A stretch of 52,047 bases of DNA from a virus (IMGVR_UViG_3300032237_000364:1-52047); one strand, 5' to 3'; shown: positions 2,554 through 43,538, numbered from the stretch's first letter. Notes: generated by a model not told the origin, from the letters alone. Numbers and translations are program-made.

Positions 2554-2580
2554 TTTTTTCAATAGTTTTTTCAATAGTTA
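2545..2580 (+). repeat. Three tandem copies of a 12-nt unit (TTTCAATAGTTT) overlapping the gp46-like stop codon
   Basis: tttcaatagttt tttcaatagttt tttcaatagtta read directly. Confidence 0.85.
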
Positions 2581-2597
2581 TATATTTATATTAGACA

Positions 2598-2744
2598 ATG
2601 GGACGCAAAAAGAAATACCTTACGGAAGAAGATAAGAAATTAGCTCAGCAGCGTTGGGTTCGTGAGTATTATGCACGTAACAGAGAAAAATTAAATAAAA
2701 AAGCTAAAGATGGATACTATGAAAGAAACTGTAAATCCATATGA
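2598..2744 (+). CDS. Small basic protein (48 aa) overlapping the start of the downstream endonuclease; not in the ORF track
   Basis: Manual translation MGRKKKYLTEEDKKLAQQRWVREYYARNREKLNKKAKDGYYERNCKSI; homologue at 17846; TATTTATA motif at 2583. Confidence 0.75.
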   Translation: MGRKKKYLTEEDKKLAQQRWVREYYARNREKLNKKAKDGYYERNCKSI

Positions 2745-3519
2745 TAGAAATGAGTTGATCACTTGCTTAGAATGTAATAAACAATTGCGGCAAATTACAC
2801 AAAAACATTTAATTAAGTGTAGTGGCATTACAATTGAAATATATAAACAAAGGCATAGCAATTGTAAATTACGTACGGACTGGCATTCATTTAAAATCCA
2901 ACAATTAAACTCAAAACATAAATCCGGTGCTTCTAATCCAATGAAAAATTTGGTACATTTAACTAAAATGAAAGAGTGCCAACTACTCGCAGTTCAGAAA
3001 CAAGAATATCGAGATAAGGTTAGTAGACGCCAAAAATTATGTAATAACAACCCTAACTTTAGTAAGACATGGTTGGGTAGAAAACATAAAAAAGAAAGTA
3101 TTGATAAAATGCGTAATACACAAATACTTCGCCGTGCTCGTAAGGGATTATCAAACAAATTTAAACCAAATTTTAATTTAGACGCATGCATTATTTTTGA
3201 TATGATAGCAAAAATGACAAACACTTATATAATGCATGGAATGAATGGCGGCGAATACAATATTACAGAATTGGGGTATTGGGTAGACGGATATGATAAA
3301 GAAAATAATATTGTTTATGAGTTCGATGAACCTAGGCACTTTAACAAAGACGGTGCATTGAATGAACGTGATGTCGTACGACAAAAAAATATTGAAGATT
3401 ATTTGCATTGTACATTTATACGATTAAATGAATCACACATTGAATCTATGAGAGATGTTGTTGATAAATTGATAGAAATCACCAAAACCAACGGAAGTTC
3501 GAAGATATCCTTTGAATAG
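2719..3519 (+). CDS. Putative free-standing homing endonuclease (zinc finger, NUMOD3-like segment, PD-(D/E)XK/DUF559-like domain); alternative start at 2710
   Basis: CLEC..HLIKC zinc-finger-like N-terminus, GRKHKKESIDKMR (NUMOD3-like), YWVDGYDKENNIVYEFDEPRH nuclease-like motif. Confidence 0.7.
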   Translation: MKETVNPYDRNELITCLECNKQLRQITQKHLIKCSGITIEIYKQRHSNCKLRTDWHSFKIQQLNSKHKSGASNPMKNLVHLTKMKECQLLAVQKQEYRDKVSRRQKLCNNNPNFSKTWLGRKHKKESIDKMRNTQILRRARKGLSNKFKPNFNLDACIIFDMIAKMTNTYIMHGMNGGEYNITELGYWVDGYDKENNIVYEFDEPRHFNKDGALNERDVVRQKNIEDYLHCTFIRLNESHIESMRDVVDKLIEITKTNGSSKISFE

Positions 3520-3548
3520 ATATTTATATAAAATAGATATCTTACATA

Positions 3549-5822
3549 ATGGCTAAAAAGGAAGTAGTTTATCAAGGCCTTGCCGAATTACCAGTTATAA
3601 TTGACGATACCTCTGTAAATTCTCCGGATTATTTTAGAGTAACTAAATTACCAACAGAATTTACAGCAGGTATCAATGTATTTGAATTTAAAGGAAATCC
3701 TTCTTTATTTCGAGAAGGTGTACATATATATGTCGAAGTTTTAGATTCTAACGGAGAACCAGTTTATTACGAAACTAATTTAGATTTAGAATCGGAAAGT
3801 CAATCCGCAATCATTTCAGTTTTTATTGATTCGGATACAAGGCCTGGTAATGGTACAATAGCTATTTGTAGTACAGCGTATAAAGATGCTGTTGGCAATA
3901 AATTACCTACTTCAAAAATTAACGTTAGATGGTCTTCGAAAATTTTCATAGATCCCTCTAAAAGGAATGCTTCGGAAATTGTATTCGGCGCATTGCCCGC
4001 AGTCACAATATTCGGTACTACTGGTTCATACACCAATTTAGGATATCCGGGCGGAAATAAGTTTGTTACGTCTGAGATACATAATCTACAGTATTTGTAT
4101 CGTAACACGACTCCGTTATTAATAACGTCTTCTTTATCTACTACTGGATTTGATACAACTGCTTTAGGAGCATCAGTTAACATCACATACAACAATCTGA
4201 CAGATAACAATCCAGTAGCGTTTGGAACTGTAAATACTTCTTCAGCATATACGTCTGTTATAACTGCAATTTCTAGCAGTGGAATTGCATTTTTATCCGA
4301 TCCTATAGACTTTCCAGTTTACAATAGTAATTCTGTATATCAATTATCGTCTGCAACAGTTGTAACGGCGTCGATCGCATACGAGCAGTCAGCGTCGTTA
4401 AGCTCAGACGTTACACAAAATACACACAATTTAGTAATCGCATACTTTGCCGGTCTACAGCCGCAAATAGGCACTGTTAGTAAAATTCGCTCATATTATC
4501 GTTCAGCGGGGGTCGGAGAATATATATTTTCCAATGAAACGGATGTTACGGGCCAAGCACCTGAATATGGGTTCACTGCTGATGTGATATCCGCTTCTTT
4601 TGCAGTACATACTGTGCACAGGAATGACCATTTAGATTTCAAATTTGAATTTGTCAATCCGTACGGCTCAGTTTCTAAACAAGTAGTTGAATCCCTAAAC
4701 AATTTATTTTTAGGAGGTAATACATACATCGGCGGAAAAGACAATCTTTTAACAGGTTCTTTATATGTAGCAGGTTCCACTGGAACTGGTGTAGAAATCA
4801 CTGGAGAAGGAAACTCTGCAATGGTTCGGTCAATAGGATATACCGGATTCCATAACGCAGTGAGTGGTTCTGGTGCAGGAGGTTTTGTTATGTATTCAGG
4901 GTCTATTCAACCTGTATTAGGTTCATATGAAACATATACTGGGGTCGGGTTGGAACTTGTAGCTAATTCCAGTTCATACTTTAAATATCAAACGTCTGGA
5001 TCGGGATTGTTAGATATACGTACATCAAATTTCTTTTTAGGTAATTCATCTTCATACATATCTGAAGTTAATGGGGCCATGACTATATACACTCCATACT
5101 TCACAGTTTCCACTGTAGGAGTTGTAACAGCATCTGCATTACATGTAGAAAAGTCATACACTGTTAACAGTATTGATTACAATGCTATTATGATTGATAC
5201 CACACAAGGTATTTTAGATGCAAAAAATCTTGGAAGAAATTTATACAATTCAATGAACGAGTATGTTACGCAGTCTTTTATATCCGGCAGTACGTGGCAA
5301 TATTTTCCCGGCCCAACTTTTGTATTTCAGGGACTTCCGAATGAGTTTCGATATACAGTATCTTATCAACAAAGATTACAGACAGGCGCCGGCACTTTTG
5401 GGACTTCTCTCTATCCTAGAAGTTTTTTAAGATTTAGACTGTATTCATGTAACTCTGGAAGTACAGGATATGATGATAGCAATTTTACTTTAGTATCTAC
5501 AAATATTGAAACTGGGTCATATACATCTAGGGTTCCGGCGGGAATTATAGTTTACACTGGAAGTAATTCTATAAAAGATTATACATTTTCTGAAGATATA
5601 AATTTACTGGACAGAGGCATTGATTTGTCAGGTTCGTTAGCACAGTATCAAGGAAAACTGTTCAAAGGAGTTATAGATTTTGCAATTTCTACTAATAATA
5701 TATCAGCATCTGGTTCAGTAACATCTTCATTTAAAAATATTTGTGTTAACGGTTCTCGTGGTATGAGTGGTATTTGGAATGGAGAATTCAGCCCTCCGGT
5801 AAATTTATTTCCATCACTTTAA
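3549..5822 (+). CDS. Putative virion structural protein (tail/baseplate, beta-rich)
   Basis: 757 aa, Ser/Thr/Gly rich, adjacent to a tail fibre gene, promoter-like motif at 3521. Confidence 0.55.
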   Translation: MAKKEVVYQGLAELPVIIDDTSVNSPDYFRVTKLPTEFTAGINVFEFKGNPSLFREGVHIYVEVLDSNGEPVYYETNLDLESESQSAIISVFIDSDTRPGNGTIAICSTAYKDAVGNKLPTSKINVRWSSKIFIDPSKRNASEIVFGALPAVTIFGTTGSYTNLGYPGGNKFVTSEIHNLQYLYRNTTPLLITSSLSTTGFDTTALGASVNITYNNLTDNNPVAFGTVNTSSAYTSVITAISSSGIAFLSDPIDFPVYNSNSVYQLSSATVVTASIAYEQSASLSSDVTQNTHNLVIAYFAGLQPQIGTVSKIRSYYRSAGVGEYIFSNETDVTGQAPEYGFTADVISASFAVHTVHRNDHLDFKFEFVNPYGSVSKQVVESLNNLFLGGNTYIGGKDNLLTGSLYVAGSTGTGVEITGEGNSAMVRSIGYTGFHNAVSGSGAGGFVMYSGSIQPVLGSYETYTGVGLELVANSSSYFKYQTSGSGLLDIRTSNFFLGNSSSYISEVNGAMTIYTPYFTVSTVGVVTASALHVEKSYTVNSIDYNAIMIDTTQGILDAKNLGRNLYNSMNEYVTQSFISGSTWQYFPGPTFVFQGLPNEFRYTVSYQQRLQTGAGTFGTSLYPRSFLRFRLYSCNSGSTGYDDSNFTLVSTNIETGSYTSRVPAGIIVYTGSNSIKDYTFSEDINLLDRGIDLSGSLAQYQGKLFKGVIDFAISTNNISASGSVTSSFKNICVNGSRGMSGIWNGEFSPPVNLFPSL

Positions 5823-5890
5823 ATGTAATGAATTTCATCTGTTTATTTTACTATGAAAATAATTATTAATAAATAATCAATATTCATACA

Positions 5891-8062
5891 ATGCCAAATA
5901 CTGTTAAAGATTTATCAAACCAGTACGCATCACAATCATATCAGTCACTGACGCAGTATTCTAGCTCAGGTGTAATGTATGATGGTCTTGCAAATCCAAT
6001 AACAAAAATTGTCGTAACATCTATTACGGCTTCGCTTAACGGTAACGCTTCTACAGCAACTACCGCATCTTATGCATTGAATTCTCCTGCGACGTCTGTA
6101 ACACCCGGTGGGTCTACAACTTACATTCAATTTAATTCTAGTTCTGCTTTTGGAGGAGACCAAGCATTGACATTTAATACTGTTACCAAAGCATTTGTAC
6201 ACGGGGCTTCAAACTTCGCAGTTGGAAATTATTCACACGCTGTGGGACAAGGGTCTGTCGCGTCTGGATCGTATCAAACTGTTGTTGGCAAGTTTAATAA
6301 AAAGAACAACTCAGCTTCTTTATTTATTATAGGTAACGGCTCTAACGATTCTTCTAGAAGTGATTTGTTAATAGCAAATTCTTCAGGATTGATTGTTTCT
6401 GGAAATTTAATAGTTACTTCTGGAATAACAGGGTCTTTGTCAGGATTGTCAACATCAGCATCTTATGCAGTTAGCGCATCATACTCTGCAAAGTCTATGT
6501 CAAGTTCATATTCAGAGACATCGACATCAAGCTCATATTCATTAACAGCATCATACGCTGTCAATGTCCCTGCCAGTACAGCAGCTGGTTCAAACACCCA
6601 TGTACAATTTAACTCAGCTTCTATATTGCAAGGTGATGTTGCTTTTACATTTGGACCTTTGACAAAGGGATTGGCGAATGGGTATGGTGTAGTAGCCATT
6701 GGAATATATTCACACGCTGAAGGAAGCAATACACAAGCAACTGGTTACTATTCACACGCCGAGGGCTCTGGCTCAACAACATCAGGCGACTATTCACACG
6801 CCGAAGGTAAAAATAACTTAGCATCCGGCAACTATTCTCATGCCGAAGGCGAGGCTGCAAGAGCTCAAGGAATTGGTTCGCATGTGGAAGGCTCGACTAC
6901 ATTAACTACCGGGGTTTTTGCACATGCTGAGGGGTATGCCACTTCTGGGTCTGGTAACTATTCACACGCCGAAGGATATGCTACACGAGGAACGGGAATT
7001 TCATCACACGCCGAAGGCTATCAAACCGTTGCAGGCGGCGGATATTCACACGCCGAAGGATATACTACACAAGCAATAGGAATTTCATCACACGCTGAAG
7101 GGTATCAAACCATTGCAACTGGTTACTATTCGCATGCGGAAGGAAGCAATACACAAGCAACTGGTTACTATTCACACGCCGAGGGCGCTGGCTCAACAAC
7201 ATCAGGCGACTATTCACACGCTGAAGGGAATGCTACACAAGCAATAGGTACCTATTCACACGCTGAAGGAAGTCAAAACATTGCGTCGGGTTCATATTCG
7301 TTTGCAGCAGGATATCAAAATACTGTAAACGCTGACGGCGCCGCTGCGTTTGGTTCTGTAAGTAATATTGGCTCGTCGGCTATCGGCTCGTTCTCAGCCG
7401 CAAACGGGGCTAGCATCTCAGGTTCTTACACCGCTGTTTTCGGAAGGTATAATACTAACGCATCCGGCTCCGGAGAACTAATAGTAGGTAATGGCATAGC
7501 TAGTGCAAGAAGTAATGCATTTAGGGTATCTTCTACCGGAGCCTGTTATTCAGGAACTACATTTAATAATGGGGGTGCTGACTATTCTGAATATTTTGAA
7601 GCTGACGGCTCGTGTAATACAATTAAAATTCCTACCGGAGTCGTAGTGGAGTTGAATGGATATAAAATACGTCCATGCACAGATAAGGCAAATGCTATAG
7701 GTGTAATTTCGTCGACACCGACTGTAGTAGGTAATAGCGATGGTGGTACCGGCGACGAGTGGGTAAATAAATATGAAAAAGACGTTTGGGGAAATTACAT
7801 AATGGAAAGTTATTCGTACGAAGAGACTATTGGAATAGATAACAACGGCGCACCAGTGGTACGTACAGTAAATACAGTTCGTAAAAAGCTGAATCCGTTA
7901 TACAATCCAGATGTTGTATATATTCCTAGAGAACAAAGACCTGAATGGAATGTAGTTGGTTTATTAGGTCAAATACGTGTACTTAAAAATCAGCCGATAC
8001 CAGACCGTTGGATTTGGTTGAAAGATTTAAGTTCTGAAGTGGCATTATATTTAGTTAGATAA
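5891..8062 (+). CDS. Tail fibre/spike with YadA-like (Hep/Hag) beta-roll repeats and a C-terminal peptidase G2-type intramolecular chaperone
   Basis: About 14 tandem 14-aa SHAEG repeats; GADYSEYFE and YIPREQRPEWNVVGLLGQIRV motifs typical of the autocleaving G2 chaperone domain. Confidence 0.8.
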   Translation: MPNTVKDLSNQYASQSYQSLTQYSSSGVMYDGLANPITKIVVTSITASLNGNASTATTASYALNSPATSVTPGGSTTYIQFNSSSAFGGDQALTFNTVTKAFVHGASNFAVGNYSHAVGQGSVASGSYQTVVGKFNKKNNSASLFIIGNGSNDSSRSDLLIANSSGLIVSGNLIVTSGITGSLSGLSTSASYAVSASYSAKSMSSSYSETSTSSSYSLTASYAVNVPASTAAGSNTHVQFNSASILQGDVAFTFGPLTKGLANGYGVVAIGIYSHAEGSNTQATGYYSHAEGSGSTTSGDYSHAEGKNNLASGNYSHAEGEAARAQGIGSHVEGSTTLTTGVFAHAEGYATSGSGNYSHAEGYATRGTGISSHAEGYQTVAGGGYSHAEGYTTQAIGISSHAEGYQTIATGYYSHAEGSNTQATGYYSHAEGAGSTTSGDYSHAEGNATQAIGTYSHAEGSQNIASGSYSFAAGYQNTVNADGAAAFGSVSNIGSSAIGSFSAANGASISGSYTAVFGRYNTNASGSGELIVGNGIASARSNAFRVSSTGACYSGTTFNNGGADYSEYFEADGSCNTIKIPTGVVVELNGYKIRPCTDKANAIGVISSTPTVVGNSDGGTGDEWVNKYEKDVWGNYIMESYSYEETIGIDNNGAPVVRTVNTVRKKLNPLYNPDVVYIPREQRPEWNVVGLLGQIRVLKNQPIPDRWIWLKDLSSEVALYLVR

Positions 8063-8073
8063 TAAAATTTAAA

Positions 8074-10017
8074 ATGATAAAAACAATAATCGCAGTATAT
8101 CCGGGAAGGTTTCAGCCATTCGGGGCACATCATGCAGAAGCCTTTGGATGGCTTGAAAAACAATTTGGAATGGGTAAAACTTTCATAGTAACTTCTAATG
8201 CCGTAAACCCCCCAAAAAGTCCCTTTAACTTCGAAGAGAAAAAATCTATAATAAGCACCTATAAGCTAGGAGATAGGCTTGTATTGGTGAAGAATCCATA
8301 TCAAGCGGAGGAGTTAATGAAGCGATACGATCCGGAAACTACAGCAGTTGTATTTATGGTAGGTAAAAAAGACATGGCTGAAGACCCCCGATTTGCAATG
8401 AAGCCGAAGAAAGACGGAAGTCCATCTTACTTCCAGCCATACGAATCAAATAAGAAAAATCTTGAAGGATACAAAAAACAAGGATATTTAATTGTCGCAC
8501 CACACGTTTCAATTAACATTCCAGGATATGGAGAAATGTCGGGCACGCAAGTCAGAAAAGCACTCGGAGACAATTCAAAGTCGCGAGATGAAAAAGGAAT
8601 TTTGTTTAAAGGTATATTTGGCTGGTCACCTAAAGATAATTCTAAATTAGCAGATATGATATTTGATAAATTAGAAGGGTTACACGAATCTTTGTTTTCA
8701 AAAACATGGTGGTCAAATTCATTGAATTTGCAAGAGGAAGATCCTTGTTGGACTGGATATAAACAATATGGTGTGAAAAAGAAAGGAAAGAAAACAGTTC
8801 CTAATTGTGTGCCAGTAGAAGAAGGATATATGGGAGCAAAGCAAACGGAAAAACACAATAAAAAATTGATTAAACTCAAAGATTTTTTAGAAAACAACAC
8901 GGGCAAATCATTTGTATACGACTTCAATCAATTTCCAAAAACAGTATTCGGGGTTCCAATGGAAGATTTAATTGAATCTAGATTGTTAAAAGAGGGTGGT
9001 GCCGGGGGCCATATGCATCACCTTTTCAATATTGAATGGGTACATACTGGTAAAGACTTGGTGAAAGCTTTTCAAATGTCTGTTAACTATTTGGCAAAAG
9101 TTCCAGCGTCGGTTAAGATAGATGGCATCAATGCTTCTATTCGATTAATTACTTTAGATGGTAAAAAGACTTTTGTAATGGACAGAGGTTCTAACAAACC
9201 GCTGGATGTTAAAGGCATTACCAAAGCAGAGTTAGTAGATAGATTTGGGGAAGGTCATGGTATGATTAAAATAGGTGGCACTGTATTGGACATATTTAAT
9301 GAATCTATACCAAAAATAAAACCAGCGTTAAATAAATTAGGACTTTGGGACAATCCAAACATTTTATTCAATATCGAGTATGTAGCGGGGTCGACCAATG
9401 TTCTGGCATACGATAAAAATTTCTTAGCAATACACGGCTTATTAGAAATTGAGCAAGTAACTCCGACCAGAAGAGCTACAAAAGAAATACCATTTAGTAA
9501 GACAGAAATGCAAGATTTGTTAACAAATTTAACACCTGTTGCAAAAACTAAAGGATATGAAGTTTTAGGCTCTGTGCCAACTAAATTAGAAGGTGTCCCA
9601 GACTTGTCAGGAGAGTTAAATAAGACTTATACAGTGCAATTCGGCGACCATGAAGAAACAAAGAAACTTTCACAATGGTTAGCAAAAGCAACTGTTCCGG
9701 AGGTTAATATTAAAACTAAAGATGGCAAAACTATTTCAGCTTTATCTAAAGAAGTTTTAACTAAAATTTTAAGCGGGACTCCATTATCTGATTTTATCAC
9801 AAATCCTAAAGACTATCAAGCAGCTGTAGATGGTTTTGTGATTTATCTGGCTACTATGAAGTTAGGTGATGCAATACTAGCTAAACTTTCCTCGCCGTTA
9901 GGCCCGGTATCTAAACATGAAGGAGTTGTAATCAGAGATAAAAAGATTTCTAAAGATCCGTTTAAAATTACCGGTGCCTTTATATTAAGTGGGCTAGCAA
10001 GTTCTTTTAACAAGTAA
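8074..10017 (+). CDS. Multidomain protein: N-terminal cytidylyltransferase-like (HIGH superfamily) domain, a short Cys module, and a C-terminal conserved phage domain
   Basis: YPGRFQPFGAHH and MSGTQVR motifs; DPCWTGYKQYGVKKKGKKTVPNCVP module; GGAGGHMHH..SVKIDGIN..KHEGVVIRD C-terminal domain with nucleotidyltransferase/ligase-like motifs. Confidence 0.6.
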   Translation: MIKTIIAVYPGRFQPFGAHHAEAFGWLEKQFGMGKTFIVTSNAVNPPKSPFNFEEKKSIISTYKLGDRLVLVKNPYQAEELMKRYDPETTAVVFMVGKKDMAEDPRFAMKPKKDGSPSYFQPYESNKKNLEGYKKQGYLIVAPHVSINIPGYGEMSGTQVRKALGDNSKSRDEKGILFKGIFGWSPKDNSKLADMIFDKLEGLHESLFSKTWWSNSLNLQEEDPCWTGYKQYGVKKKGKKTVPNCVPVEEGYMGAKQTEKHNKKLIKLKDFLENNTGKSFVYDFNQFPKTVFGVPMEDLIESRLLKEGGAGGHMHHLFNIEWVHTGKDLVKAFQMSVNYLAKVPASVKIDGINASIRLITLDGKKTFVMDRGSNKPLDVKGITKAELVDRFGEGHGMIKIGGTVLDIFNESIPKIKPALNKLGLWDNPNILFNIEYVAGSTNVLAYDKNFLAIHGLLEIEQVTPTRRATKEIPFSKTEMQDLLTNLTPVAKTKGYEVLGSVPTKLEGVPDLSGELNKTYTVQFGDHEETKKLSQWLAKATVPEVNIKTKDGKTISALSKEVLTKILSGTPLSDFITNPKDYQAAVDGFVIYLATMKLGDAILAKLSSPLGPVSKHEGVVIRDKKISKDPFKITGAFILSGLASSFNK

Positions 10018-10037
10018 TATTTATTAATAAAGAAATT

Positions 10038-10649
10038 ATGTCTACGAAGTTACGTAATATTGACGCCATCAAAAAAATGTTGGATGGACAGCACAAAAGC
10101 CAATCCAAAAAGTCAATTGGTTATCAAAAAACAGTTGAGAAAACTACTAGAGAAGTAGGAGAGACTTGGGTTGATGTTCATGGTGCTGAATGGGTTCAGA
10201 AAGAAGGGTTCAAAATTAAAAAAGGAAAATTGGATGAAATCAGAGCTTTAATAGAAGCTAGGAAAATGCCAGTTAAGTGTCCTAAATGCAATGCGCCAAT
10301 GGTTAAAAGACTTGACAAAAAGTTTTGGGTTTTAGAAAAACATTGCTTTGATTGTCAAGTAGCATTTGAACATAACTTACGTATTGAAGGTAAATACGAA
10401 GCTTATGAAAAAGAAAGAATTTTGAAAAATGCAGAATCTTGGTTAAAGGACGCTGAGCAAGAAGCAATGGAAATTGTAGCAGCGATGAGAAATCCAGTTA
10501 CCTATTCCGATGTGGAAGGAAATATTGAAACGTGGTCAGGCGGTCGTTCTCCGGATGAAATTGCGGATAAAATAGCAGCAGACTTTAAAAAGTTTAAAGA
10601 AGATTTCATAAATAAATTAAAACAAGAACTAGCTAATGATAAAGCTTAA
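10038..10649 (+). CDS. Hypothetical phage protein with zinc ribbon
   Basis: CPKC...CFDC; promoter-like motif at 10018. Confidence 0.6.
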   Translation: MSTKLRNIDAIKKMLDGQHKSQSKKSIGYQKTVEKTTREVGETWVDVHGAEWVQKEGFKIKKGKLDEIRALIEARKMPVKCPKCNAPMVKRLDKKFWVLEKHCFDCQVAFEHNLRIEGKYEAYEKERILKNAESWLKDAEQEAMEIVAAMRNPVTYSDVEGNIETWSGGRSPDEIADKIAADFKKFKEDFINKLKQELANDKA

Positions 10650-11361
10650 AGACCTTTTAAAAGAAGGTAAGGAAACTAAAGAACCTGTTAGACAAGATGA
10701 TTTAGCTTCGGTAACTGCCGACGTAACAAAATACTTTGAATCAAATAAAAAGTCTTTTGAAAAACTTGCTGATGAAAATGATTGGGACGCTTTCTATGAA
10801 AAGGCTTATGATAAATTTCCAGATGCAGACCAAGACGACGTCGCACAGGCTTTGAACAAAGCAATGTTATCTGCAGGATGGGTTGAAAACGAGACTCCTG
10901 AAGTAACTGAAAAAGATTTAGAATATAAAGCTTTTGGAGATAAAAAGAATTTAGGTAAAGGGATTAAAATGGGAGATTACGATAAAAAGAGTAAAGCTCC
11001 TAAAGACGTTAAACCGGAAATTTCTGCGCCGCTTGACAAAATGAAATTTGACAAGTTAAAAAAAAAGGTAACTGAGAGCTCTGACTGTAATTGTTTACAT
11101 GAAGAAATTTTAGAAGAAGCTGAATACCACGGAAGAAAAGTTACTTTGAACAAACCATTTTTAACGCCGGGAGGTCCTAGAAAGCGTGCAGTGTACGTTA
11201 AAAATGAAAAAGGCAATGTAGTGAAAGTAGGATTTGGCGATCCAAATATGCGCATTAAAAAAAATAGTCCTTCGCACAGAAAGTCATTCAGAGCGAGACA
11301 TCATTGTGAAGATCCAGGACCACATTGGAAGGCTAGGTATTGGTCATGTAAAGCATGGTAG
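10636..11361 (+). CDS. Hypothetical protein with MIKLKDLLKE leader and a basic C-terminal domain of a type seen in T4-like phages
   Basis: C-terminal KVGFGDPNMRIK..RKSFRARHHC..ARYWSCKAW. Confidence 0.6.
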   Translation: MIKLKDLLKEGKETKEPVRQDDLASVTADVTKYFESNKKSFEKLADENDWDAFYEKAYDKFPDADQDDVAQALNKAMLSAGWVENETPEVTEKDLEYKAFGDKKNLGKGIKMGDYDKKSKAPKDVKPEISAPLDKMKFDKLKKKVTESSDCNCLHEEILEEAEYHGRKVTLNKPFLTPGGPRKRAVYVKNEKGNVVKVGFGDPNMRIKKNSPSHRKSFRARHHCEDPGPHWKARYWSCKAW

Positions 11362-11990
11362 ATATGAGATACATTATATACAAAATTACTAATACTATAA
11401 ACAATCGATATTATATTGGCAGACATGCCACTACAAATATTGATGACGGGTATATGGGCAGTGGTAAAGCAATAATCAATGCTATTAAAAAGTATGGCAA
11501 AGATTCTTTTAAAAAAGAAATATTAGCAGAGGCTACGTCACCTGAAGAATTATGGGATTTAGAAAAATGTATAGTTAATGAGTCTGTAGTCACTGACCCA
11601 CTTTCGTATAATATGGCATATGGCGGTCGTAATTATCTAGATGGATTAAAAAAGTACGATTCGGAAAAGTTTTTTCAACATCAATCAGACGCTGGAAAAA
11701 TAGGAGGTATAAAAAGTGTTTCGTTACACAAAGAAAAATTTCCGAACAATGAATGGCATCACAGAGGAGCGATAGCATCTATATTGTCTAGGCGTAATAA
11801 TCCAAAATTTAGGTACGAAGTAATTTCAAATAACATGCGTTATTTAGTTACAAGAGATGAGCTAATAATATTATGTAAAAATCAAAATTGGAATTATAGT
11901 ACGTTAACATGGAATTTAACGTACGTAAAAGAAAAAATAATTAAGCGTGGACCGCTAAAGGGATTTTTTATAAAAATGATTGAACAATAA
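11355..11990 (+). CDS. GIY-YIG (Seg-like) homing endonuclease
   Basis: IIYKITNTINNRYYIGRH..GYMGSG..AIKKYGKDSFKKEIL..E..YN. Confidence 0.85.
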   Translation: MVDMRYIIYKITNTINNRYYIGRHATTNIDDGYMGSGKAIINAIKKYGKDSFKKEILAEATSPEELWDLEKCIVNESVVTDPLSYNMAYGGRNYLDGLKKYDSEKFFQHQSDAGKIGGIKSVSLHKEKFPNNEWHHRGAIASILSRRNNPKFRYEVISNNMRYLVTRDELIILCKNQNWNYSTLTWNLTYVKEKIIKRGPLKGFFIKMIEQ

Positions 11991-12013
11991 AATTTCAGTA
12001 AAATTCATTACTT

Positions 12014-12253
12014 ATGGTATTAGTTCATATATTAACGCATGTAATTGCAATGTGTATTGGAATAATGGTATGTAGAAAATTCCTGACAGGAGTTGCTTTT
12101 TTTACAGAGTATGAGCTGATAACCATATCGCAAAAAATTAAACGTTCTCGAATATCCGAGGACTTGCAATTTGAATTAATCAACTACTTGGCGTGCGAAG
12201 ATAAGAAATATTTTGAAATGTCAGCGGTGCTTAAAAATATAATCAACGAATAA
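12014..12253 (+). CDS. Hypothetical protein, hydrophobic N-terminus
   Basis: 79-aa ORF filling the gap between flanking genes. Confidence 0.4.
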   Translation: MVLVHILTHVIAMCIGIMVCRKFLTGVAFFTEYELITISQKIKRSRISEDLQFELINYLACEDKKYFEMSAVLKNIINE

Positions 12254-12263
12254 TAGTTTAAAT

Positions 12264-13838
12264 ATGTTAAAACTTAAAAATTTACTGCGCGAAGCTGCAG
12301 CTTCTGATATTGAAACTTTAGTGACTAAAGTTAAAAATTACGATGAGTTTGTGTCTAAGCTAGGAGATTTAGCTAAAGATCCAAAAATACAATCTTTTAT
12401 TAAATCTGGCAAGGGTGACGGCAGTTTAGATGATGATAAAATAGACGCAGTTTCTAAAAACATTTTAGTTACCAAACTTCGTCCAACACAAAATGAAATT
12501 GACGTTGATAAAAGCTTGATGTATCCATTAACAAAGCCAGATGCGTTGCAAAATTGTTTAGGGAAAACTCCCATCACTATTAAAGCTCCCATTGTAACTT
12601 ACAACAGTAAATATATAATTGATGGACATCATAGATGGAGTCAGGTATATTCTATGAATCCCAATGCTGTTATGACAGCGATAGATTTAGAAGGCCCTGA
12701 AATGAATCCTATTGATATTTTAAAGATAGTTCAGTTATCAATAGCAGGTGATATAGGAGCTGTACCGACTGCGGTTGTTAAAGGCAGAAATTTACTTAAA
12801 GCAGATGGAAAGTTCATCGGTGATTATGTAGTTAAAAACATCACAGATGACTGTGTAAAAGTATTTAAAAGGAATCGTTCAAAGACATTGTCAACGGCAA
12901 CTCCAGAATTGATTGCGGGAAAAATTGTAGTTCCAAATGTAATGGACATGCAAAAAACTTCGCAACCTGTTCCAGGAGCACCTTCAAGAAACGTAATGCC
13001 GCAAACAGACGACGCCCCTGATGCGATTAAAAATATTGCAAAGGGAGTTGTAAATTATAATAAACCATACCAATACGAATCAAAAATAATTAAAATGATA
13101 AAATTAATTGATTTATTAAAGGAAGATGAAGCTCCTAAGTGTCCTATAGCCACACAAAATGTTGAAGTAAATTTAAAACATCGTCAAATAGCTATTGACA
13201 AGTATGGATACGGTCCATTAAACCCTAACAATCCAAATATTAAATTTTGGAAAGAAAAAGCTAGAATTTGGAAGCTGGCCACTATAGAAGAAGCAAAGTC
13301 TGCTAGATGTAACAGTTGTGCAGCATTCAATATCACTACTAGAATTTTAAATTGTATCGGCGCGGGGCTATCTGCTGAAGAAAAATCAGTGGAACCTCGA
13401 CAAAGTGAACCAAATACGCATACACAAAGAAATCCGGGCCCACCTGTAGAAGAAAATTTAATTTCAGAAATAACTACTTTAGGACTTTCGGGTATTAAAA
13501 GATTTGCTGTTAAACACGGATTTTCAGTTAAAACTAAAACGTCGGGTGGTCGAGTACCTTACGCCACGCTAACTAAAGATGGTAAATCTTTTGGACCGTT
13601 TGACCCGACAATTACTACATTAGCCAGTTTACAGAAACGAGTTGGTATTGTAACTGAAGATGAAATACCTGAACAACCGGAGCCAGAAACAGATGACACT
13701 GAAAATGTAGGTGAACAAGATGCGTGGGAAACTATAGAAGCTGGTAAGTTAGGTTATTGTATAATGCACAAATTCAAATGTTCGGGTTCTAGGACGTGTA
13801 ACGCTTGGATTGAAGGCGGTCCTGTAAAAGATAAATAA
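12264..13838 (+). CDS. Multidomain protein: ParB/Srx-like domain plus Cys-rich domain
   Basis: LRPTQ..PIV..YIIDGHHRW (ParB/Srx-like); internal second leader MIKLIDLLKE at 13095; CNSC and YC..KFKC..TC cysteine cluster. Confidence 0.65.
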   Translation: MLKLKNLLREAAASDIETLVTKVKNYDEFVSKLGDLAKDPKIQSFIKSGKGDGSLDDDKIDAVSKNILVTKLRPTQNEIDVDKSLMYPLTKPDALQNCLGKTPITIKAPIVTYNSKYIIDGHHRWSQVYSMNPNAVMTAIDLEGPEMNPIDILKIVQLSIAGDIGAVPTAVVKGRNLLKADGKFIGDYVVKNITDDCVKVFKRNRSKTLSTATPELIAGKIVVPNVMDMQKTSQPVPGAPSRNVMPQTDDAPDAIKNIAKGVVNYNKPYQYESKIIKMIKLIDLLKEDEAPKCPIATQNVEVNLKHRQIAIDKYGYGPLNPNNPNIKFWKEKARIWKLATIEEAKSARCNSCAAFNITTRILNCIGAGLSAEEKSVEPRQSEPNTHTQRNPGPPVEENLISEITTLGLSGIKRFAVKHGFSVKTKTSGGRVPYATLTKDGKSFGPFDPTITTLASLQKRVGIVTEDEIPEQPEPETDDTENVGEQDAWETIEAGKLGYCIMHKFKCSGSRTCNAWIEGGPVKDK

Positions 13839-13840
13839 TT

Positions 13841-14056
13841 ATGCCATTAAACGTTCCAGTATTAATTTCGGATATACAATTAGTTTTAAAAGCTCAAGGG
13901 CCGCCGCCGCCAGATCCCGCTGCAGCCGCGGTCTTGGAAGCTTCGCAATTAAAACTAGCTACTGGGTTAGCAAATGCTATCAACAAATTTGTTTTATCAG
14001 CCAACCCAATACCAGTAGTCACATCGGCTGGCGCCGGCACGGCTACGATTTCTTAA
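13841..14056 (+). CDS. Small hypothetical protein
   Basis: 71-aa ORF tightly packed after 13838. Confidence 0.5.
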   Translation: MPLNVPVLISDIQLVLKAQGPPPPDPAAAAVLEASQLKLATGLANAINKFVLSANPIPVVTSAGAGTATIS

Positions 14057-14105
14057 GTTATTTACTGTCTTAATATTTATTAATATAAAAGACAGTGAAT
14101 AACTT

Positions 14106-14759
14106 ATGGAAACACTAACAAACAAAACAGCGATTTTAAAATCAGCATTCCCATACATAATAATTGCAATAATGGCAATTGTTATTTTCATGCAAAGGTC
14201 TTGCTACTCACCAACGCCCCCAGCTCCGTCAAAAACTTCAGTAGTTAACATCAATGGGCAGAAATTTGATGTTCAAAAACAAACTACTGACACACAATGG
14301 ATGTCGACACCTCCACAAATTGTAATTCGCCCAGGTAAAGTAATTCACAAAGACAGTATTGTATATGTAGAAATTCCTCCATGTGATGATACATTGGCAA
14401 TATTGGAAGACTACTTTGCAAAGAAAATATATTCAGACACTTTACGATTAAAAGATTCTTTAGGATATATAGCTGTTCAAGATACATTGAATCGAAATGA
14501 AATCTTAACAAGGATTTGGGATGCACATATCAATACAATGAAAATCACTGATACATTTTATTTATCTACTAGGCCAAGAACACAGTGGTATTTTGGAGGG
14601 TTGATAGGAGCTATGAGACCAAATACAACAATGGCAGGTGCAAGCTTGTTAGTTAAAAATAAAAGAGACTGTATATACAGTTTAAACGCTGGGTACACTT
14701 CCAATCTAAATTTATTTGTACAAGGCACCGTTTTTTGGAAAATCAAATTTAAAAAATAG
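14106..14759 (+). CDS. Membrane-anchored protein with beta-rich C-terminus (possible lysis/spanin-like protein)
   Basis: N-terminal TM segment YIIIAIMAIVIF followed by QRSC; amphipathic beta strands ending FWKIKFKK. Confidence 0.45.
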   Translation: METLTNKTAILKSAFPYIIIAIMAIVIFMQRSCYSPTPPAPSKTSVVNINGQKFDVQKQTTDTQWMSTPPQIVIRPGKVIHKDSIVYVEIPPCDDTLAILEDYFAKKIYSDTLRLKDSLGYIAVQDTLNRNEILTRIWDAHINTMKITDTFYLSTRPRTQWYFGGLIGAMRPNTTMAGASLLVKNKRDCIYSLNAGYTSNLNLFVQGTVFWKIKFKK

Positions 14760-14762
14760 GTT

Positions 14763-15356
14763 ATGGCGAATCAAACACAAAAGTCTTTAAAAGAAATCAT
14801 CAAAGACGAGTATAAAAAATGTGTACAAGACCCGGCACATTTCATGAAAAAGTATTGTCAAATACAACATCCACAAAAAGGAAAAATACCATTTCATTTA
14901 TATAAATTTCAAGAGCAAGTATTACATGATTTGCGTGATCATGACTATAATATTATATTAAAGTCTAGACAGTTAGGTATATCAACACTATCCGCGGGGT
15001 ATGCTCTTTGGTTAATGACCTTTTTTGGTGATAAGAACATTTTAGTTATCGCAACTAAACAAGATGTAGCAAAAAATCTAGTTACAAAAGTAAAAGTGAT
15101 GTATGAGAACTTACCCTCGTGGCTTAAGTTACCAGCAGTAGAAGATAATAAATTATCACTTCGTCTTAATAATGGTTCACAAATTAAAGCAACTTCTTCT
15201 TCAGGCGACTCAGGTCGTTCTGAAGCATTGTCTTTGTTAATTATAGATGAGTGTTGTGAGTATAACACTAACATAACAATCAAAAGTCGTATTACCGGAG
15301 AGTGTGAAACAATTAAAATTGGGGAGTTATATAAACGTTTAGAAAATTTATCTTAG
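14763..15356 (+). CDS. terL: Terminase large subunit, N-terminal part, fused to a 34-aa split-intein N fragment (15252-15353)
   Basis: T4 gp17-like LYKFQ, Walker A KSRQLGIST and Walker B LLIIDE, followed directly by intein block A-like CCEYNTNITIK..IKIGELY. Confidence 0.92.
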   Translation: MANQTQKSLKEIIKDEYKKCVQDPAHFMKKYCQIQHPQKGKIPFHLYKFQEQVLHDLRDHDYNIILKSRQLGISTLSAGYALWLMTFFGDKNILVIATKQDVAKNLVTKVKVMYENLPSWLKLPAVEDNKLSLRLNNGSQIKATSSSGDSGRSEALSLLIIDECCEYNTNITIKSRITGECETIKIGELYKRLENLS

Positions 15357-15383
15357 CCATATTTATTTTAAATATGCAATAAT

Positions 15384-16358
15384 ATGGATTTATCAGTTTT
15401 ATACAATTCTAACGGAGACTTAATCGCTGGGATTGAAAATATTCAATTTTATAGAGATAAAGGAATATTACATGTATATGAATATATAATGCTGAATACT
15501 ATGTTTTTAGACTCTGCGACTACATCGATTAAAGAACGTATTTTTTATATATTTAATGATTTAACAGAATTACAACTATGTCCACATTGTTGTATTAATA
15601 AACGTAAATATCAAGCAAACAAAAAATCGTTAACGAATACTTGCGGAAGTGATGTTTGTAAAAAATCAAAAATACATCGCCGAGATACATCGCACTTATA
15701 TATAAGTAAAGAATGTCAGTGCGGAAATACATTTAAAGTTTCTATAAAATCAGGAATGAATAAACAGTATTGTACCAGAAAATGCTACACATCGTTTCGT
15801 AATTACAGACACTCCTTTGATACAATATTGAAAATACGGGAATCCAATAAACGTACACATTCTGATCCAATATGGAGACTATCTATGAAGGAGATATATG
15901 AACAGTCCCATAAAAAAATTTCCGAAACTATGAAGACTAAAATTCTAGACGGTACTTTTACGCCATGTATTACAAATTCTTATACTCGATGGACTGCAGC
16001 CGTGTGTATTAATGGGAAAAATAAAAAGTTTCGAAGCTTTTGGGAAGCTACATTTTATTTATTGACACCGGGATTGGAATTTGAAAAAATACGTATACCA
16101 TATATATTAGATAATCAATCACATTCATATATTGTTGATTTTGTCGATGAAAAAAATAAAATTTTATATGAAATTAAGCCAAAATCTACAAAAGATTCTG
16201 AATTGAATCAGTTAAAGTTTCAGTACGCTACTATGTGGGCAAAAGATAATGGATATTCATTTGTTGTTATTTCCGATGACTGGTTTCATAACAATGTTAA
16301 CAGACTTGATTTTAATGAGCATCCTCAGTTATATAATTCAATGAAACAATTTTTATGA
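15384..16358 (+). CDS. Free-standing endonuclease (zinc fingers plus TnsA-N-like PD-(D/E)XK domain) between the terL halves
   Basis: CPHC, CQCG..YCTRKC; FRSFWEA..FEKIRIPY..YIVDF..LYEIKP. Confidence 0.8.
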   Translation: MDLSVLYNSNGDLIAGIENIQFYRDKGILHVYEYIMLNTMFLDSATTSIKERIFYIFNDLTELQLCPHCCINKRKYQANKKSLTNTCGSDVCKKSKIHRRDTSHLYISKECQCGNTFKVSIKSGMNKQYCTRKCYTSFRNYRHSFDTILKIRESNKRTHSDPIWRLSMKEIYEQSHKKISETMKTKILDGTFTPCITNSYTRWTAAVCINGKNKKFRSFWEATFYLLTPGLEFEKIRIPYILDNQSHSYIVDFVDEKNKILYEIKPKSTKDSELNQLKFQYATMWAKDNGYSFVVISDDWFHNNVNRLDFNEHPQLYNSMKQFL

Positions 16359-17803
16359 GTAATATAGTAAAAAATATAGAATATGATATTCTAACTCCGT
16401 CGGGGTATTCAAATTTCAAAGGAATATCCATGAAAGAAGTCGGTGTATTATTTAATATTGAGTTCAGTGACGGATCAAATTTGAGTTGTACAGAAAATCA
16501 TTTAATAAAACTCACAAATACTGATTTTCTTGAGGCATGCCATTTACAAATAGGAGATGAACTAGAAAATGGAGTATTAGTTGAGAATATATCATATGAA
16601 ATTGGAAAATTTTATGTTTTTGATCCGATCGATGTTGAAATGTATAACGAATATTACAGTAACTCTGTTATAAGTCATAATTGTGCGTTCATACCAAATG
16701 TGGAAGACATATGGATATCGTCGCAACAAACTTTAGCAACGGGTGGTGGAGCAATTATATTATCAACTCCGAATGGAGTCGGTAACTTTTTTCACCAACT
16801 GTGGGTAGAGTCGGAATCTAAAACAAATTCCAGGTTTCATCAAATTAAACTTCCATGGACTGTACATCCTGACAGAGACCAATCTTGGAGAGATAAACAA
16901 GATGATTTATTAGGTATACGTGGAGCTCGTCAAGAATGTGATGCGTCATTTGAAGGCACAGGTCACACAGTTATAGAGGGAGAGTTATTAGCTTGGTATA
17001 GAAAGACTACTGTACAAGATCCTATCAGTAAACAAGGATTTGATGGTAATTTATGGATTTGGGAACATCCTGATTACACAAAGGATTATATAGTAGTAGC
17101 TGACGTTGCACGTGGTGATGGGGGTGACTATTCAGGTGCACACGTTCTAGATGTAGAATCTATGGTTCAAGTCGCTGAATATAAAGGGCAGATATCACCG
17201 AAGGATTACGGCAACTTACTAGTTAATTTAGCTACACAGTATAATGACGCTCTGTTAGTAATAGAAAATGCAAATATCGGATGGACTACTATACAAGTAG
17301 CCATTGACAGGGGATATAAAAATTTGTATTACTCTACTAAAGATTCTTCAGTTTCAGACGTTTCACAACAATTATCTAGATATGTAGACTTAAAAGATAC
17401 CTCGCAGATGGTAGCTGGGTTTACAACTTCTTCTCGTACAAGACCATTAGTAATTTCCAAATTAGATACATACATGCGAGAGCGAACTCCTGTAATACGT
17501 AGTTCTAGGTTGATGGATGAATTAGATGTATTTATTTGGAACGGGTCTAAGGCAGAAGCCATGAGAGGTTACAATGACGACTTGGTAATGTCGTTTTGCA
17601 TCGCACTTTGGATTCGAGATACCGCTTTACGCTTGCGCCAGCAAGGCATAGAAGTTCAAAGAAAAACTTTGGATTATTTTGGAAAAAGCTCAGGAGTTTA
17701 CAACGGTCGTTCAGGAATGTTAAAAGATTCTGGATGGAGCATGAATGTGAAGAATAATGGAAAAGGAAATATCGGAGTTGAAGATTTAACGTGGCTTTTA
17801 TAA
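16355..17803 (+). CDS. terL: Split-intein C fragment (109 aa, 16355-16681) fused to the terminase large subunit C-terminal part
   Basis: Block B CTENH, block F VFDPIDV, block G YYSNSVISHN|CAF; then LSTPNG motif III, RNase H-like nuclease VADVARG, LVIENANIG and NDDLVMS. Confidence 0.92.
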   Translation: MSNIVKNIEYDILTPSGYSNFKGISMKEVGVLFNIEFSDGSNLSCTENHLIKLTNTDFLEACHLQIGDELENGVLVENISYEIGKFYVFDPIDVEMYNEYYSNSVISHNCAFIPNVEDIWISSQQTLATGGGAIILSTPNGVGNFFHQLWVESESKTNSRFHQIKLPWTVHPDRDQSWRDKQDDLLGIRGARQECDASFEGTGHTVIEGELLAWYRKTTVQDPISKQGFDGNLWIWEHPDYTKDYIVVADVARGDGGDYSGAHVLDVESMVQVAEYKGQISPKDYGNLLVNLATQYNDALLVIENANIGWTTIQVAIDRGYKNLYYSTKDSSVSDVSQQLSRYVDLKDTSQMVAGFTTSSRTRPLVISKLDTYMRERTPVIRSSRLMDELDVFIWNGSKAEAMRGYNDDLVMSFCIALWIRDTALRLRQQGIEVQRKTLDYFGKSSGVYNGRSGMLKDSGWSMNVKNNGKGNIGVEDLTWLL

Positions 17804-17845
17804 TTCTAAAAGTATTTTTCTAAAAGTTTTATATTTATTAGTGAA

Positions 17846-18001
17846 ATGGGACGAAAAAAGAAATACCTTACACATGAAGAGAAGCTAGAGGCGCAGCGTG
17901 TATGGAATAAAAAGTTCTACGAAAGTAACAAAGATAAATTGAATAAAGCTTCAATGGAAAAATACTATGAATTACGAAAAAATTTACAATCAAATAGTTG
18001 A
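17846..18001 (+). CDS. Small basic protein (51 aa) overlapping the HNH endonuclease start; paralogue of 2598-2744; not in the ORF track
   Basis: Manual translation MGRKKKYLTHEEKLEAQRVWNKKFYESNKDKLNKASMEKYYELRKNLQSNS; TATTTATT motif at 17832. Confidence 0.75.
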   Translation: MGRKKKYLTHEEKLEAQRVWNKKFYESNKDKLNKASMEKYYELRKNLQSNS

Positions 18002-18569
18002 GAGAGCGCGTACAGCGAGTCGTCAAAAGCTTTGCAAAAATAATAAAGAGTATGTTTATTATGAAGAGCACCACATCATTCCTAAATGTATAGGCGGTTC
18101 AGACGATAAAGTAAATTTAGTATTATTAACTGCTAGAGAACATTTTATTTGTCATTGGTTATTAATTAGAATACACATAACTAATGATAAACTCGCCTAT
18201 GCATTTTTTTCTATGTGCAATAAAAAAAGTAAACGACATTTATATTATACACCTTCCAGCAGAATGTATCAAGAATCTAAAGAAACGTTTTCTAATTTAA
18301 GAACTGGATTTTCTCACACAACATCTACAAAGGCTAAGATGTCTGAATCTAAAAAAGGATTTAAACACTCCGATGATGTTAAAAAGCGAATTTCTGACGC
18401 GCTGCGTGGAAGAGCTACTCCCGATGATGTAAAATTAAAAATATCAGAATCGAAGAAAGGAAAAGTTTCTCATAGAAGAGGAAAGCAATTGTCAGAAGAT
18501 GTAAAAAATAAGATGAAGCTAGCTAAAATACAATATTGGGCAGATAGAAAAAAATCAGAAAATTCGTAA
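17967..18569 (+). CDS. HNH homing endonuclease with NUMOD3 repeats
   Basis: EEHHIIPKCIGGSD..NLVLLTAREHFICH; repeated H(T/S)xxxKxK(M/I)SESKKG. Confidence 0.88.
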   Translation: MNYEKIYNQIVERARTASRQKLCKNNKEYVYYEEHHIIPKCIGGSDDKVNLVLLTAREHFICHWLLIRIHITNDKLAYAFFSMCNKKSKRHLYYTPSSRMYQESKETFSNLRTGFSHTTSTKAKMSESKKGFKHSDDVKKRISDALRGRATPDDVKLKISESKKGKVSHRRGKQLSEDVKNKMKLAKIQYWADRKKSENS

Positions 18570-18623
18570 AATTCAATGGTTATTATAATTCTAGATATTT
18601 ATTAATAAACTTATAACAAAATT

Positions 18624-27862: not shown

Positions 27863-28525
27863 ATGGTAATATATGAAACTATCAATAAAATAAACGGTAA
27901 ACGATATATTGGAAAAGATAAAAATAACGACCCAAATTATATAGGTTCTGGACGCGTCTTGCAAAAAGCGATAAAAAAGTACGGAAAAGAAAATTTTATA
28001 AAAAATATTTTAGAATATTGTAGCACTGAAAAAGAATTAAATGAAAGAGAAGTATATTGGATTGAAATTACAAATGCACAGAAATCTTCAGTCTATTATA
28101 ACATTGCTCCGGGTGGCAATGGCGGCGATAACATTACACATAATCCTGATAAACAGAAGTTTATTGATAAAATGATTTGCATTAATCGATCTCCTAGAAA
28201 AAATACTAAACATACAGAATCTACTAAACAAAATCAAAAAATAGCTGCTACGGGTAGATATACACTTGCATGGTTTCGTGAAAGGTACGGCGTTGAAAAT
28301 GGATTGATAAAATATAAAGAAAGAAATACATTTTTAAAACTTCGTACACAAAATGCGGTCGATGCTAATCCAGAAAAATTTTTACAACTTTTAAATGATG
28401 TTACATACAACACTAAACAAATAGCTGAATATTTTAATGTTTCTTTTTCAATAATATATCGAAAGTTAGACCAATGGTATGGGTGTAAAAGTTTAAAAGA
28501 GTATCGTAGTAAATTGTTTACTTAA
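27863..28525 (+). CDS. GIY-YIG (Seg-like) homing endonuclease
   Basis: VIYETINKINGKRYIGKD..YIGSG..AIKKYGKENF..E..YYNIAPGG. Confidence 0.85.
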   Translation: MVIYETINKINGKRYIGKDKNNDPNYIGSGRVLQKAIKKYGKENFIKNILEYCSTEKELNEREVYWIEITNAQKSSVYYNIAPGGNGGDNITHNPDKQKFIDKMICINRSPRKNTKHTESTKQNQKIAATGRYTLAWFRERYGVENGLIKYKERNTFLKLRTQNAVDANPEKFLQLLNDVTYNTKQIAEYFNVSFSIIYRKLDQWYGCKSLKEYRSKLFT

Positions 28526-43008: not shown

Positions 43009-43040
43009 AATAGGAGTTAAGAAATTAACTCCTATTCTTT
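43009..43040. terminator. Likely bidirectional terminator between convergent genes
   Basis: AATAGGAGTTAA-GAAA-TTAACTCCTATT perfect 12-bp stem. Confidence 0.75.
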
Positions 43041-43538
43041 TGAAGTGTTGAGCAAAAATTGTATTGGTTCTGGCAAAACTAAATTAATATTTTTTGTATT
43101 ATTTTTTAATGATTGTATAATGTCGTTTTTAGCAAATTTATATAATTCTAAATCACGCAAAAATCTTTGTAATCCTAGCCAGCAAAAATCTGCAGGTAAT
43201 ATTGCTTTAGAGTCTATAAATCCATGTGGATATACTTGAGTGCAAACGACATTTTTGTTAATAACAAATGAAGATATTTCAGAACACCACTGTATAAAAT
43301 ATGGAATTCGAATTATACGATATCCAGCATTTACGTAATCAATATCCTTTTGCAAATCTTTCATACAGGTATTACTGTTCGTATAGTGTAAATATCCGTC
43401 AAATTCAATAATTAATTTCATCGACTCGATACGTATATCAGGCCTGTAGTTTAGAAATTTCTTATTATGTATGATTTGTTCATCTATCAATAAAGAAATT
43501 TCATTTAATAATTTTTCTTCTGTTAAATACGATTTCAT
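43032..43538 (-). CDS. DUF559/Vsr-like endonuclease; the only credible minus-strand gene
   Basis: YRPDIRIESMKLIIEFDGYLHY..D..KD..AGYRIIRIPY. Confidence 0.75.
   Translation of the reverse strand: MKSYLTEEKLLNEISLLIDEQIIHNKKFLNYRPDIRIESMKLIIEFDGYLHYTNSNTCMKDLQKDIDYVNAGYRIIRIPYFIQWCSEISSFVINKNVVCTQVYPHGFIDSKAILPADFCWLGLQRFLRDLELYKFAKNDIIQSLKNNTKNINLVLPEPIQFLLNTSKE

Follow-up and report, generated by a model that had tools for sequence, protein, structure and literature searches.

The window analysed here is the whole 52,047-nt stretch of viral DNA IMGVR_UViG_3300032237_000364:1-52047, a T4-like myovirus fragment of 52 kb in which Pfam and PHROG matches recognise portal and gp23-like capsid proteins. 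Twice on its + strand it carries a short open reading frame (ORF; here the micro-ORF) that overlaps the start of a nuclease-like gene, its partner; together with the promoter-like DNA before them, these two genes form what we call a cassette. The window's capsid protein is 57% identical to that of Microcystis phage Mel-JY01 and 54% identical to those of Flavobacterium phages of Immutovirus. Just 2 of 42 window genes have a Shine-Dalgarno (SD)-like word; few such words are expected for a Bacteroidota host (PMC6847099), and a host of this kind would fit the scarcity.

Two cassettes in a T4-like phage fragment

The first cassette begins with a candidate operator (2548..2577, + strand) of three direct repeats with the core CAATAG, T-tracts between them and a period of 12, to which the micro-protein is predicted to bind; its first core shares bases with the stop codon of the SbcC/gp46-like gene that lies upstream. 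The promoter-like motif ATATTTAT follows at 2582..2589 (+), 16 nt 5' of the micro-ORF ATG. Micro-ORF copy 1 (2598..2744, +) encodes 48 amino acids (aa), among them Trp20 and Lys37, as a basic arm and two helices; its product is a putative autoregulator, and a further in-frame ATG lies at 2710. The partner, a putative free-standing nuclease (2719..3519, +) with an N-terminal zinc-finger-like and a C-terminal DUF559/Vsr-like part, starts at a +1 ATG within the micro-ORF, and the cassette ends at another ATATTTAT (3520..3527, +) before the next phage gene (3549). In the second cassette the candidate operator (17806..17826, +) consists of two direct repeats (core CTAAAAG, period 14; binding again predicted) that begin at 17806, 2 nt past the terminase stop. 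The promoter-like motif lies at 17831..17838 (+), 15 nt 5' of the ATG, and micro-ORF copy 2 (17846..18001, +) encodes a 51-aa putative autoregulator with Trp20, Ser36 and Met37. Its partner (17967..18569, +), a predicted HNH-NUMOD3 homing endonuclease, is located between terminase and portal, with a ATATTTAT before the portal gene (18595..18602, +) at the end of the cassette.

An earlier reading of the sequence alone (the sequence-only reading) had singled out the two micro-ORFs as ungapped relatives placed at an equal distance ahead of unrelated nucleases. All of this stands: residues 1-42 align without gaps at 52% identity, the +1-frame ATG (2719 and 17967) is offset by 121 nt in each copy, and partners 1 and 2 give no meaningful alignment. 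The family assigned to partner 2, HNH-NUMOD3, is upheld (Pfam NUMOD3, E 3e-12; PHROG 655, E 1e-45), whereas the PD-(D/E)XK-like assignment of partner 1 is a supported lead. That protein has no significant Pfam or PHROG nuclease match, only ROS_MUCR under its cut-off, and its C-terminal part resembles DUF559/PvuRts1I clusters in the Atlas (0.91-0.92). The two cassettes differ from each other in repeat sequence. In the relative immuto_2-6A the terminase-portal gap is 29 bp, versus 820 bp in the window, and the payload of cassette 2 is an optional intergenic insertion with an empty allele in a relative.

The TATTTAT motif, ATATTTAT, occurs 20 times on the + and twice on the - strand of the window, mostly shortly 5' of gene starts; in Flavobacterium phage immuto_2-6A its strand counts are 12 versus 1. 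We take it to be the reverse complement of the T4 late consensus. Judged from its position and strand bias, it is probably a promoter motif of the phage lineage; a literature search on it gave nothing relevant. The sequence-only reading had noted TATTTAT ahead of both micro-ORFs; a role as a signal peculiar to the module is ruled out by its presence before many other window genes.

Homologues, partners and payload exchange

A profile search returned 547 short homologues among 952 candidates, nearly all unnamed. Viral and metagenome loci provided 172 distinct matches, from which 156 ORFs of 40-66 aa were kept and 16 long or truncated forms dropped. Class A (88/156) has a +1 ATG directly after Tyr40, offset by 121 nt in 81 cases, 118 in 5 and 109 in 2; a start at the same codon position in so many homologues is not chance. 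Class C (16, including two misfiled rows, L307 and L045) has its own promoter motif in 11 cases and a partner that starts later or is missing. Class B (52; 59-62 aa) comes from one locus, with the same upstream gene in 34 of 35 callable cases. The offset noted earlier is common without being obligatory, and 52 homologues stand before methylase or helicase genes, not nucleases. In L219 and L043 the overlapping ATG is replaced by ACG, and the +1 frame of L219 is still open into a GIY-YIG-like ORF.

The cassette is widespread in one phage lineage. Isolate phage records held no family member (tblastn, two queries); in cellular genomes a specific pattern gave 0 matches, and the 120 loci that a looser one picked up, in 29 of 64 parts, all failed to fit the profile. 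No description of the cassette was found in the literature searched; phage small-gene catalogues may include the family in their supplements with no function assigned.

Partners were tallied by hand for 86 distinct class A genes at Pfam E values up to 0.05, many matches being under curated cut-offs: GIY-YIG (15), HNH (19), PD-(D/E)XK-like (6), LAGLIDADG (1, weak), NUMOD3 only (21), methylase (3), ROS_MUCR only (4) and nothing informative (17). A clear LAGLIDADG partner (L698, E 6e-13) appeared among 18 of 30 new partners scanned. The partners found are single homing-endonuclease-like genes or lone methylases (flanks clustered, part annotated). Class A/C cassettes have 44 gene groups as upstream neighbours in 69 loci and 31 groups downstream in 42. 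Leaders that are 98-100% identical in DNA carry partners without a mutual BLAST match, and the sequences diverge 5-26 nt past the partner ATG (L013/L015, L247/L222/L316, L031/L310). Because near-identical leaders stand on non-homologous partners, at many insertion sites and with an empty allele, we regard the cassette as a mobile unit whose payload is exchanged behind the start codon; the portable promoter and leader-gene module for selfish nucleases envisaged earlier is thus supported.

Codon-level purifying selection, named in the sequence-only reading as a check, is found in the micro-protein: the ratio of non-synonymous to synonymous substitution rates (dN/dS) is 0.19 in class A/C (25 disjoint pairs) and 0.12 in class B (23 pairs). 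The AlphaFold monomer model has residues 1-9 extended and helices at 10-27 and 29-47 (predicted local distance difference test, pLDDT, 93), and the median net charge is +8. Helix-turn-helix (HTH)/Xre or ribbon-helix-helix (RHH) matches were absent for the window ORFs in Pfam and for 34 aligned members in NCBIfam and PHROGs; the best PHROG match is the weak 'transcriptional regulator' PHROG 19880 (4/34 members, E 0.002). Nothing in Pfam, PHROGs, NCBIfam or PDB names the micro-protein by sequence, nor do structure searches name a relative (Foldseek none; VIA-align best Z 4.8, to generic helices), a two-helix model being uninformative for fold search. The Atlas returned unnamed clusters only, the nearest named one being AT_hook (0.89, in 14% of members), a lead only.

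The arm-helix motif is also the N-terminus of some nucleases, single or repeated (P0122-P0128, L088, L286), which suggests that the micro-ORF may have arisen by gene fission from a nuclease N-terminus. L088:1801-2730 encodes a GIY-YIG nuclease that begins with the arm and first helix, fused in frame; one repeat-like core precedes the promoter motif there. The 946-aa protein P0121, of eukaryote-like composition, repeats a similar basic arm-helix motif about nine times, at intervals.

The partner ATG itself is under selection. Where codon 41 is Tyr or His and codon 42 starts with G, the third base that completes the ATG is T in 85/87, versus a T-ending Tyr40 codon in 53/87 (Fisher p 5e-10; rows not independent). 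The Tyr40 codon also supplies A at -3 of the partner in 86/86, and A at this position is a positive initiation determinant in Flavobacterium (PMC6847099); codons 37-38 provide an SD-like word in 24/86. The +1 frame is open for just 3 or 8 codons upstream in 67/86, A-runs of 8 occur in 2/86 with no slippery site conserved, and the ORF overlap, kept in 88/104 class A/C modules, has lengths of 14 to 71 nt. Around the partner start no consistent RNA structure is seen (median z 0.26; 10/86 below -2), and an attenuator acting through RNA structure, a form of the translational attenuator suggested earlier, has no support. Because the ATG is selected, the open +1 frame short, the overlap variable and no RNA structure conserved, the data favour a partner that starts independently at its own ATG rather than by frameshifting. 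The promoter motif starts 12-16 nt before the micro-ORF ATG in 67/83, a distance suggestive of a leaderless or nearly leaderless transcript.

Tandem repeats that covary with the micro-protein

Two direct repeats, unnoticed in the sequence-only reading, adjoin the promoter motif, each a 5-8 nt core with a T-tract. Called at ≥8/9 matches and a period of 10-17, they are present in 70/83 class A/C cassette promoters (shuffles: mean 5.5, maximum 12), 1/67 other promoters from the same loci and the window, and 2/41 promoter-less class B upstream regions. The period is mostly 14 (45) or 11 (17). The repeats are non-palindromic, and both copies change in concert between sub-families. The same repeat stands before GIY-YIG and HNH partners (L032/L001, L027/L243); it is the micro-protein that the repeat tracks, and not the nuclease. 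In most cassettes 4-5 nt separate the end of the proximal core from the motif; in some sub-families (L222/L247) the distance of the repeats upstream of it reaches about 18 nt.

Two other readings of the repeats were considered. Target-site duplication was rejected by inference, as the same repeat recurs at different insertion sites, and a terminator or hairpin is unsupported (no consistent fold, z +1.4 and -1.7; no terminator call). Cassettes on one contig tend to have different cores (L036/L060, L002/L033, L011/L018 and the window), a pattern that would be consistent with insulation from cross-talk.

The repeat was called in 85 of 96 distinct leaders, and no position of the micro-protein predicts the repeat's last core base as well as residue 20 (within period classes z is 13, against 6.7 for the runner-up). 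In the 59 rows whose anchor at this base is C or G, Lys/Arg20 occurs with C in 20/20 and Trp/Tyr/Asp20 with G in 39/39; the next-best residue predicts 49/59, and 16 other linked characters have phi of at most 0.36. Ala/Ser/Asn20 occurs with A in 10/11. Pairing of Arg or Lys with G, and of Asp with C, on the opposite strand fits common base-readout chemistry. Residue 37 splits the periods, with Met/Ile in 52/55 long and 0/30 short repeats, and partial Mantel tests gave r 0.45 for residues 28-40 (a few misaligned rows in the run). The residue-20 association is found in both period classes and all four combinations are present (12, 8, 12 and 27), which implies at least one repeated paired change of residue and repeat, or several crossovers within about 150 bp. 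Prediction rules were set before the analysis of a new scan, which yielded 37 leaders (1 non-family, 7 without a called repeat). At these new loci the residue-20 rule was right in 26/29 (22/25 for leaders with <80% identity to earlier rows) and the residue-37 period rule in 29/29.

Probable autoregulation, its alternatives and known counterparts

We consider it probable, if well short of certain, that the micro-protein, conserved, basic and helical with 45-60 residues, is a DNA-binding autoregulator, most likely a repressor, of its own and the nuclease's transcription through the adjacent repeats. Each repeat would take one monomer, oriented antiparallel to the top strand: the GRKKKY arm would lie on the T-tract, helix 1 would read the 3' base of the core through residue 20, and helix 2 would read the core 5' end and fix the spacing through residues 33-39. 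The monomer nearest the promoter would sit over its motif and block polymerase, giving negative feedback on a near-leaderless transcript that carries micro-ORF and nuclease, and the payload would be translated from its own ATG. The 121-nt offset would then correspond to a 40-residue domain, with the codon of the invariant Tyr40 giving the -3 A and the next two codons the ATG. A repressor was one of several options in the sequence-only reading; it now has specific support from promoter-adjacent repeats and covariation that point to binding, while the choice of repression over activation comes only from repeats ending a few bases from the motif.

Several results weigh against autoregulation through the repeats. 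No repeat was called in 11/96 leaders and 7/36 new ones. The 59 exclude nine rows that have the diagnostic residues with an anchor called A, most of which look by eye like register errors; a residue-36 rule was right in just 10/16 testable new rows (by script). In the partial Mantel test the helix 1 block carries little signal of its own (r 0.07, p 0.06; a few misaligned rows in the run). Shared ancestry explains part of the covariation, and the new loci are also relatives: the approximately unbiased test does not reject one origin for the Lys/Arg20-C state (p 0.60), just 2 independent pairs fall on well-supported branches, and tree-based proof of a repeated origin for the residue-20 switch was not obtained. 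Class B lacks tandem repeats at the gene start and at the operon promoter 3 kb upstream, and is more conserved (dN/dS 0.12) despite their absence.

Covariation fits binding of either sign, and an activator, or a protein that activates and then represses, would delay nuclease expression in the manner of the C proteins of restriction-modification systems; we consider this possible but improbable. Two sites, a short distance to the ATG and nuclease overlap are traits of C-protein operons, where activation comes from the distal site and repression from the proximal one (PMC2632904), and the sub-families with repeats up to about 18 nt upstream of the motif (L222/L247) would suit activation. However, the proximal core is 4-5 nt from the motif in most cassettes, and the same motif precedes many repeat-less genes and so seems not to need an activator.

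It is unlikely that the translated leader instead sets nuclease output by coupling or start occlusion, the peptide being incidental and the repeats promoter elements. The overlap is kept in 88/104 class A/C modules, class B overlaps its neighbours too, and coupling has been put forward for free-standing T4 endonucleases whose genes overlap the ORFs upstream (PMC2988022). Neither amino-acid-level selection nor residue-repeat covariation is predicted by such a leader, however; the overlap varies in length (14-71 nt) with no consistent RNA structure at the partner start, and overlap did not mean coupling in PvuII (PMC2997769). Coupling may nevertheless add to autoregulation.

The remaining alternatives fare worse. 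In both window copies the repeats directly follow the upstream stop codon, and basic helical peptides can bind RNA, so the protein could bind the repeats in read-through transcripts of the upstream gene and attenuate them; this is very unlikely, since the repeats always adjoin a DNA-level element, the promoter motif, and show no consistent fold and no terminator call. Hardly any weight can be given to a +1 frameshift or polymerase slippage that joins the helix onto the nuclease to serve as its N-terminal DNA-binding domain; frameshifting was one of the earlier suggestions. In-frame fusions exist (P0122, P0123, L088) and the class A overlap is always +1, but the ATG is selected (85/87 against 53/87 for T-ending Tyr40), the open +1 frame is short, A-runs are rare (2/86), slippery sites are not conserved, and long forms number 8 of 8000 scored candidates versus 547 short ones (the long search is weak evidence). 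Equally implausible is the inhibitor peptide of the sequence-only reading, an antitoxin-like protein or DNA mimic binding the nuclease: the class A gene is always upstream of, and co-transcribed with, a potentially toxic gene, yet near-identical leaders stand on the unrelated folds of GIY-YIG, HNH, LAGLIDADG-like and other partners and on methylases, and the peptide is strongly basic where a DNA mimic would be acidic; its variation tracks the upstream DNA.

Autoregulation of this kind has partial counterparts. The restriction-modification C proteins (C.PvuII, C.AhdI, C.Esp1396I) are likewise encoded by a small gene upstream of, and overlapping, a nuclease gene, with two sites by their own promoter and a short site-to-start distance suggesting leaderless mRNA (PMC2632904, PMC2997769). 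They differ in being Xre-family HTH dimers on palindromic sites, whereas the micro-protein has no HTH match, is modelled as an arm and two long helices, and adjoins non-palindromic direct repeats; its payloads, carried by lytic T4-like phages, are predicted homing endonucleases from four superfamilies. The Arc repressors found in IS605-family transposons are also micro-proteins, some ≤50 aa, that repress a selfish element's own promoter, and their genes are also found beside homing endonuclease genes (bioRxiv 10.64898/2026.09.24.754181). Arc is an RHH protein, however, whereas the micro-protein monomer model is without a strand, no RHH family matches, and the cassette has no transposase. T4 I-TevI, I-TevII as well as I-TevIII limit their own expression through an operator over a late or middle promoter, but there the nuclease itself binds a copy of its homing site (PMC2988022), whereas the cassette repeats are unchanged across nuclease families. 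An operator that is constant across nuclease families points to a separate controlling protein, which would make the control portable. CapR of PLE phage satellites is a repressor derived from homing-endonuclease DNA-binding domains (PMC10448857), a likeness to the nuclease N-terminal occurrence of the arm-helix motif; it differs in being zinc-finger-related, satellite-encoded and acting in trans on capsid genes, and is unrelated in sequence as far as tested.

A broader proposal is more doubtful, though we think it possible: that the micro-proteins are a new family of monomeric helical DNA-binding proteins with a residue-to-base code, split from a nuclease N-terminus and forming a plug-in cassette of operator, promoter, repressor and start codon. 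Any nuclease or methylase gene recombining in behind the ATG would become self-limiting in expression, different operators would insulate cassettes in the same genome, and one marine lineage would have domesticated the gene in a replication operon, where it may act in trans on a tail-tube promoter. Promoter-less insertion, RNA hairpins, self-binding and coupling account for only part of how free-standing homing endonucleases are expressed and restrained once they have landed between phage genes. If real, a swappable controller that serves four nuclease superfamilies would be a further solution and would explain the spread of unrelated nucleases through one phage lineage. About 115 natural protein-repeat pairs make the binding model testable by single substitutions; for the design of small orthogonal repressors, a binder of 40 residues whose specificity can be predicted would be of interest.

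Class B, and other observations in the window

The class B operon encodes RecA, a 5'-3' exonuclease, the micro-ORF, often a methylase, and DnaB, and the micro-ORF overlaps both neighbours in many loci. The tandem repeats predicted at its operon promoter failed to appear (1/64 promoter motifs). In L454, L463, L490 and relatives the operon promoter motif, ~3.0 kb upstream, follows a variable inverted repeat with a central T-tract. Of five class B contigs, two have a single match each to a pattern predicted from class B residues; both matches are in reverse orientation at one shared site, between two ATATTTAT motifs upstream of the tail-tube gene. The site is a conserved non-coding element of one lineage (L523, L524, L528-L594). 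A pattern built from this tail-tube site returned that site in 65/67 matches; the looser pattern did not occur in 48 regions upstream of the tail tube in window-like relatives. Element and class B gene are linked in two related contigs only, and 11 more contigs of that pattern scan are gene-less fragments; the element is a post hoc lead as a class B operator. L044 has a class A cassette with a GIY-YIG partner between an exonuclease-like gene and DnaB, apparently the class B site, and class B may be a relic of an L044-like insertion.

The window contains at least eight nuclease-like genes, and the micro-ORF stands in front of two. Five without it (11355-11990, 27863-28525, 41354-42343, 43032-43538 on the - strand, and 44208-45065) are GIY-YIG or DUF559/Vsr-like, one being antisense between tail sheath and tail tube. 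The large terminase (14763-17803) is in two pieces whose inner ends resemble halves of an intein; a free-standing TnsA-like nuclease (15384-16358) lies between the pieces, a layout that recalls the 'fractured gene' arrangement (PMC2677866); in L082 a micro-ORF cassette occupies apparently the same kind of site. Among the structural genes, 45842-46441 encodes a protein of about seven 20-residue leucine-rich-like repeats.

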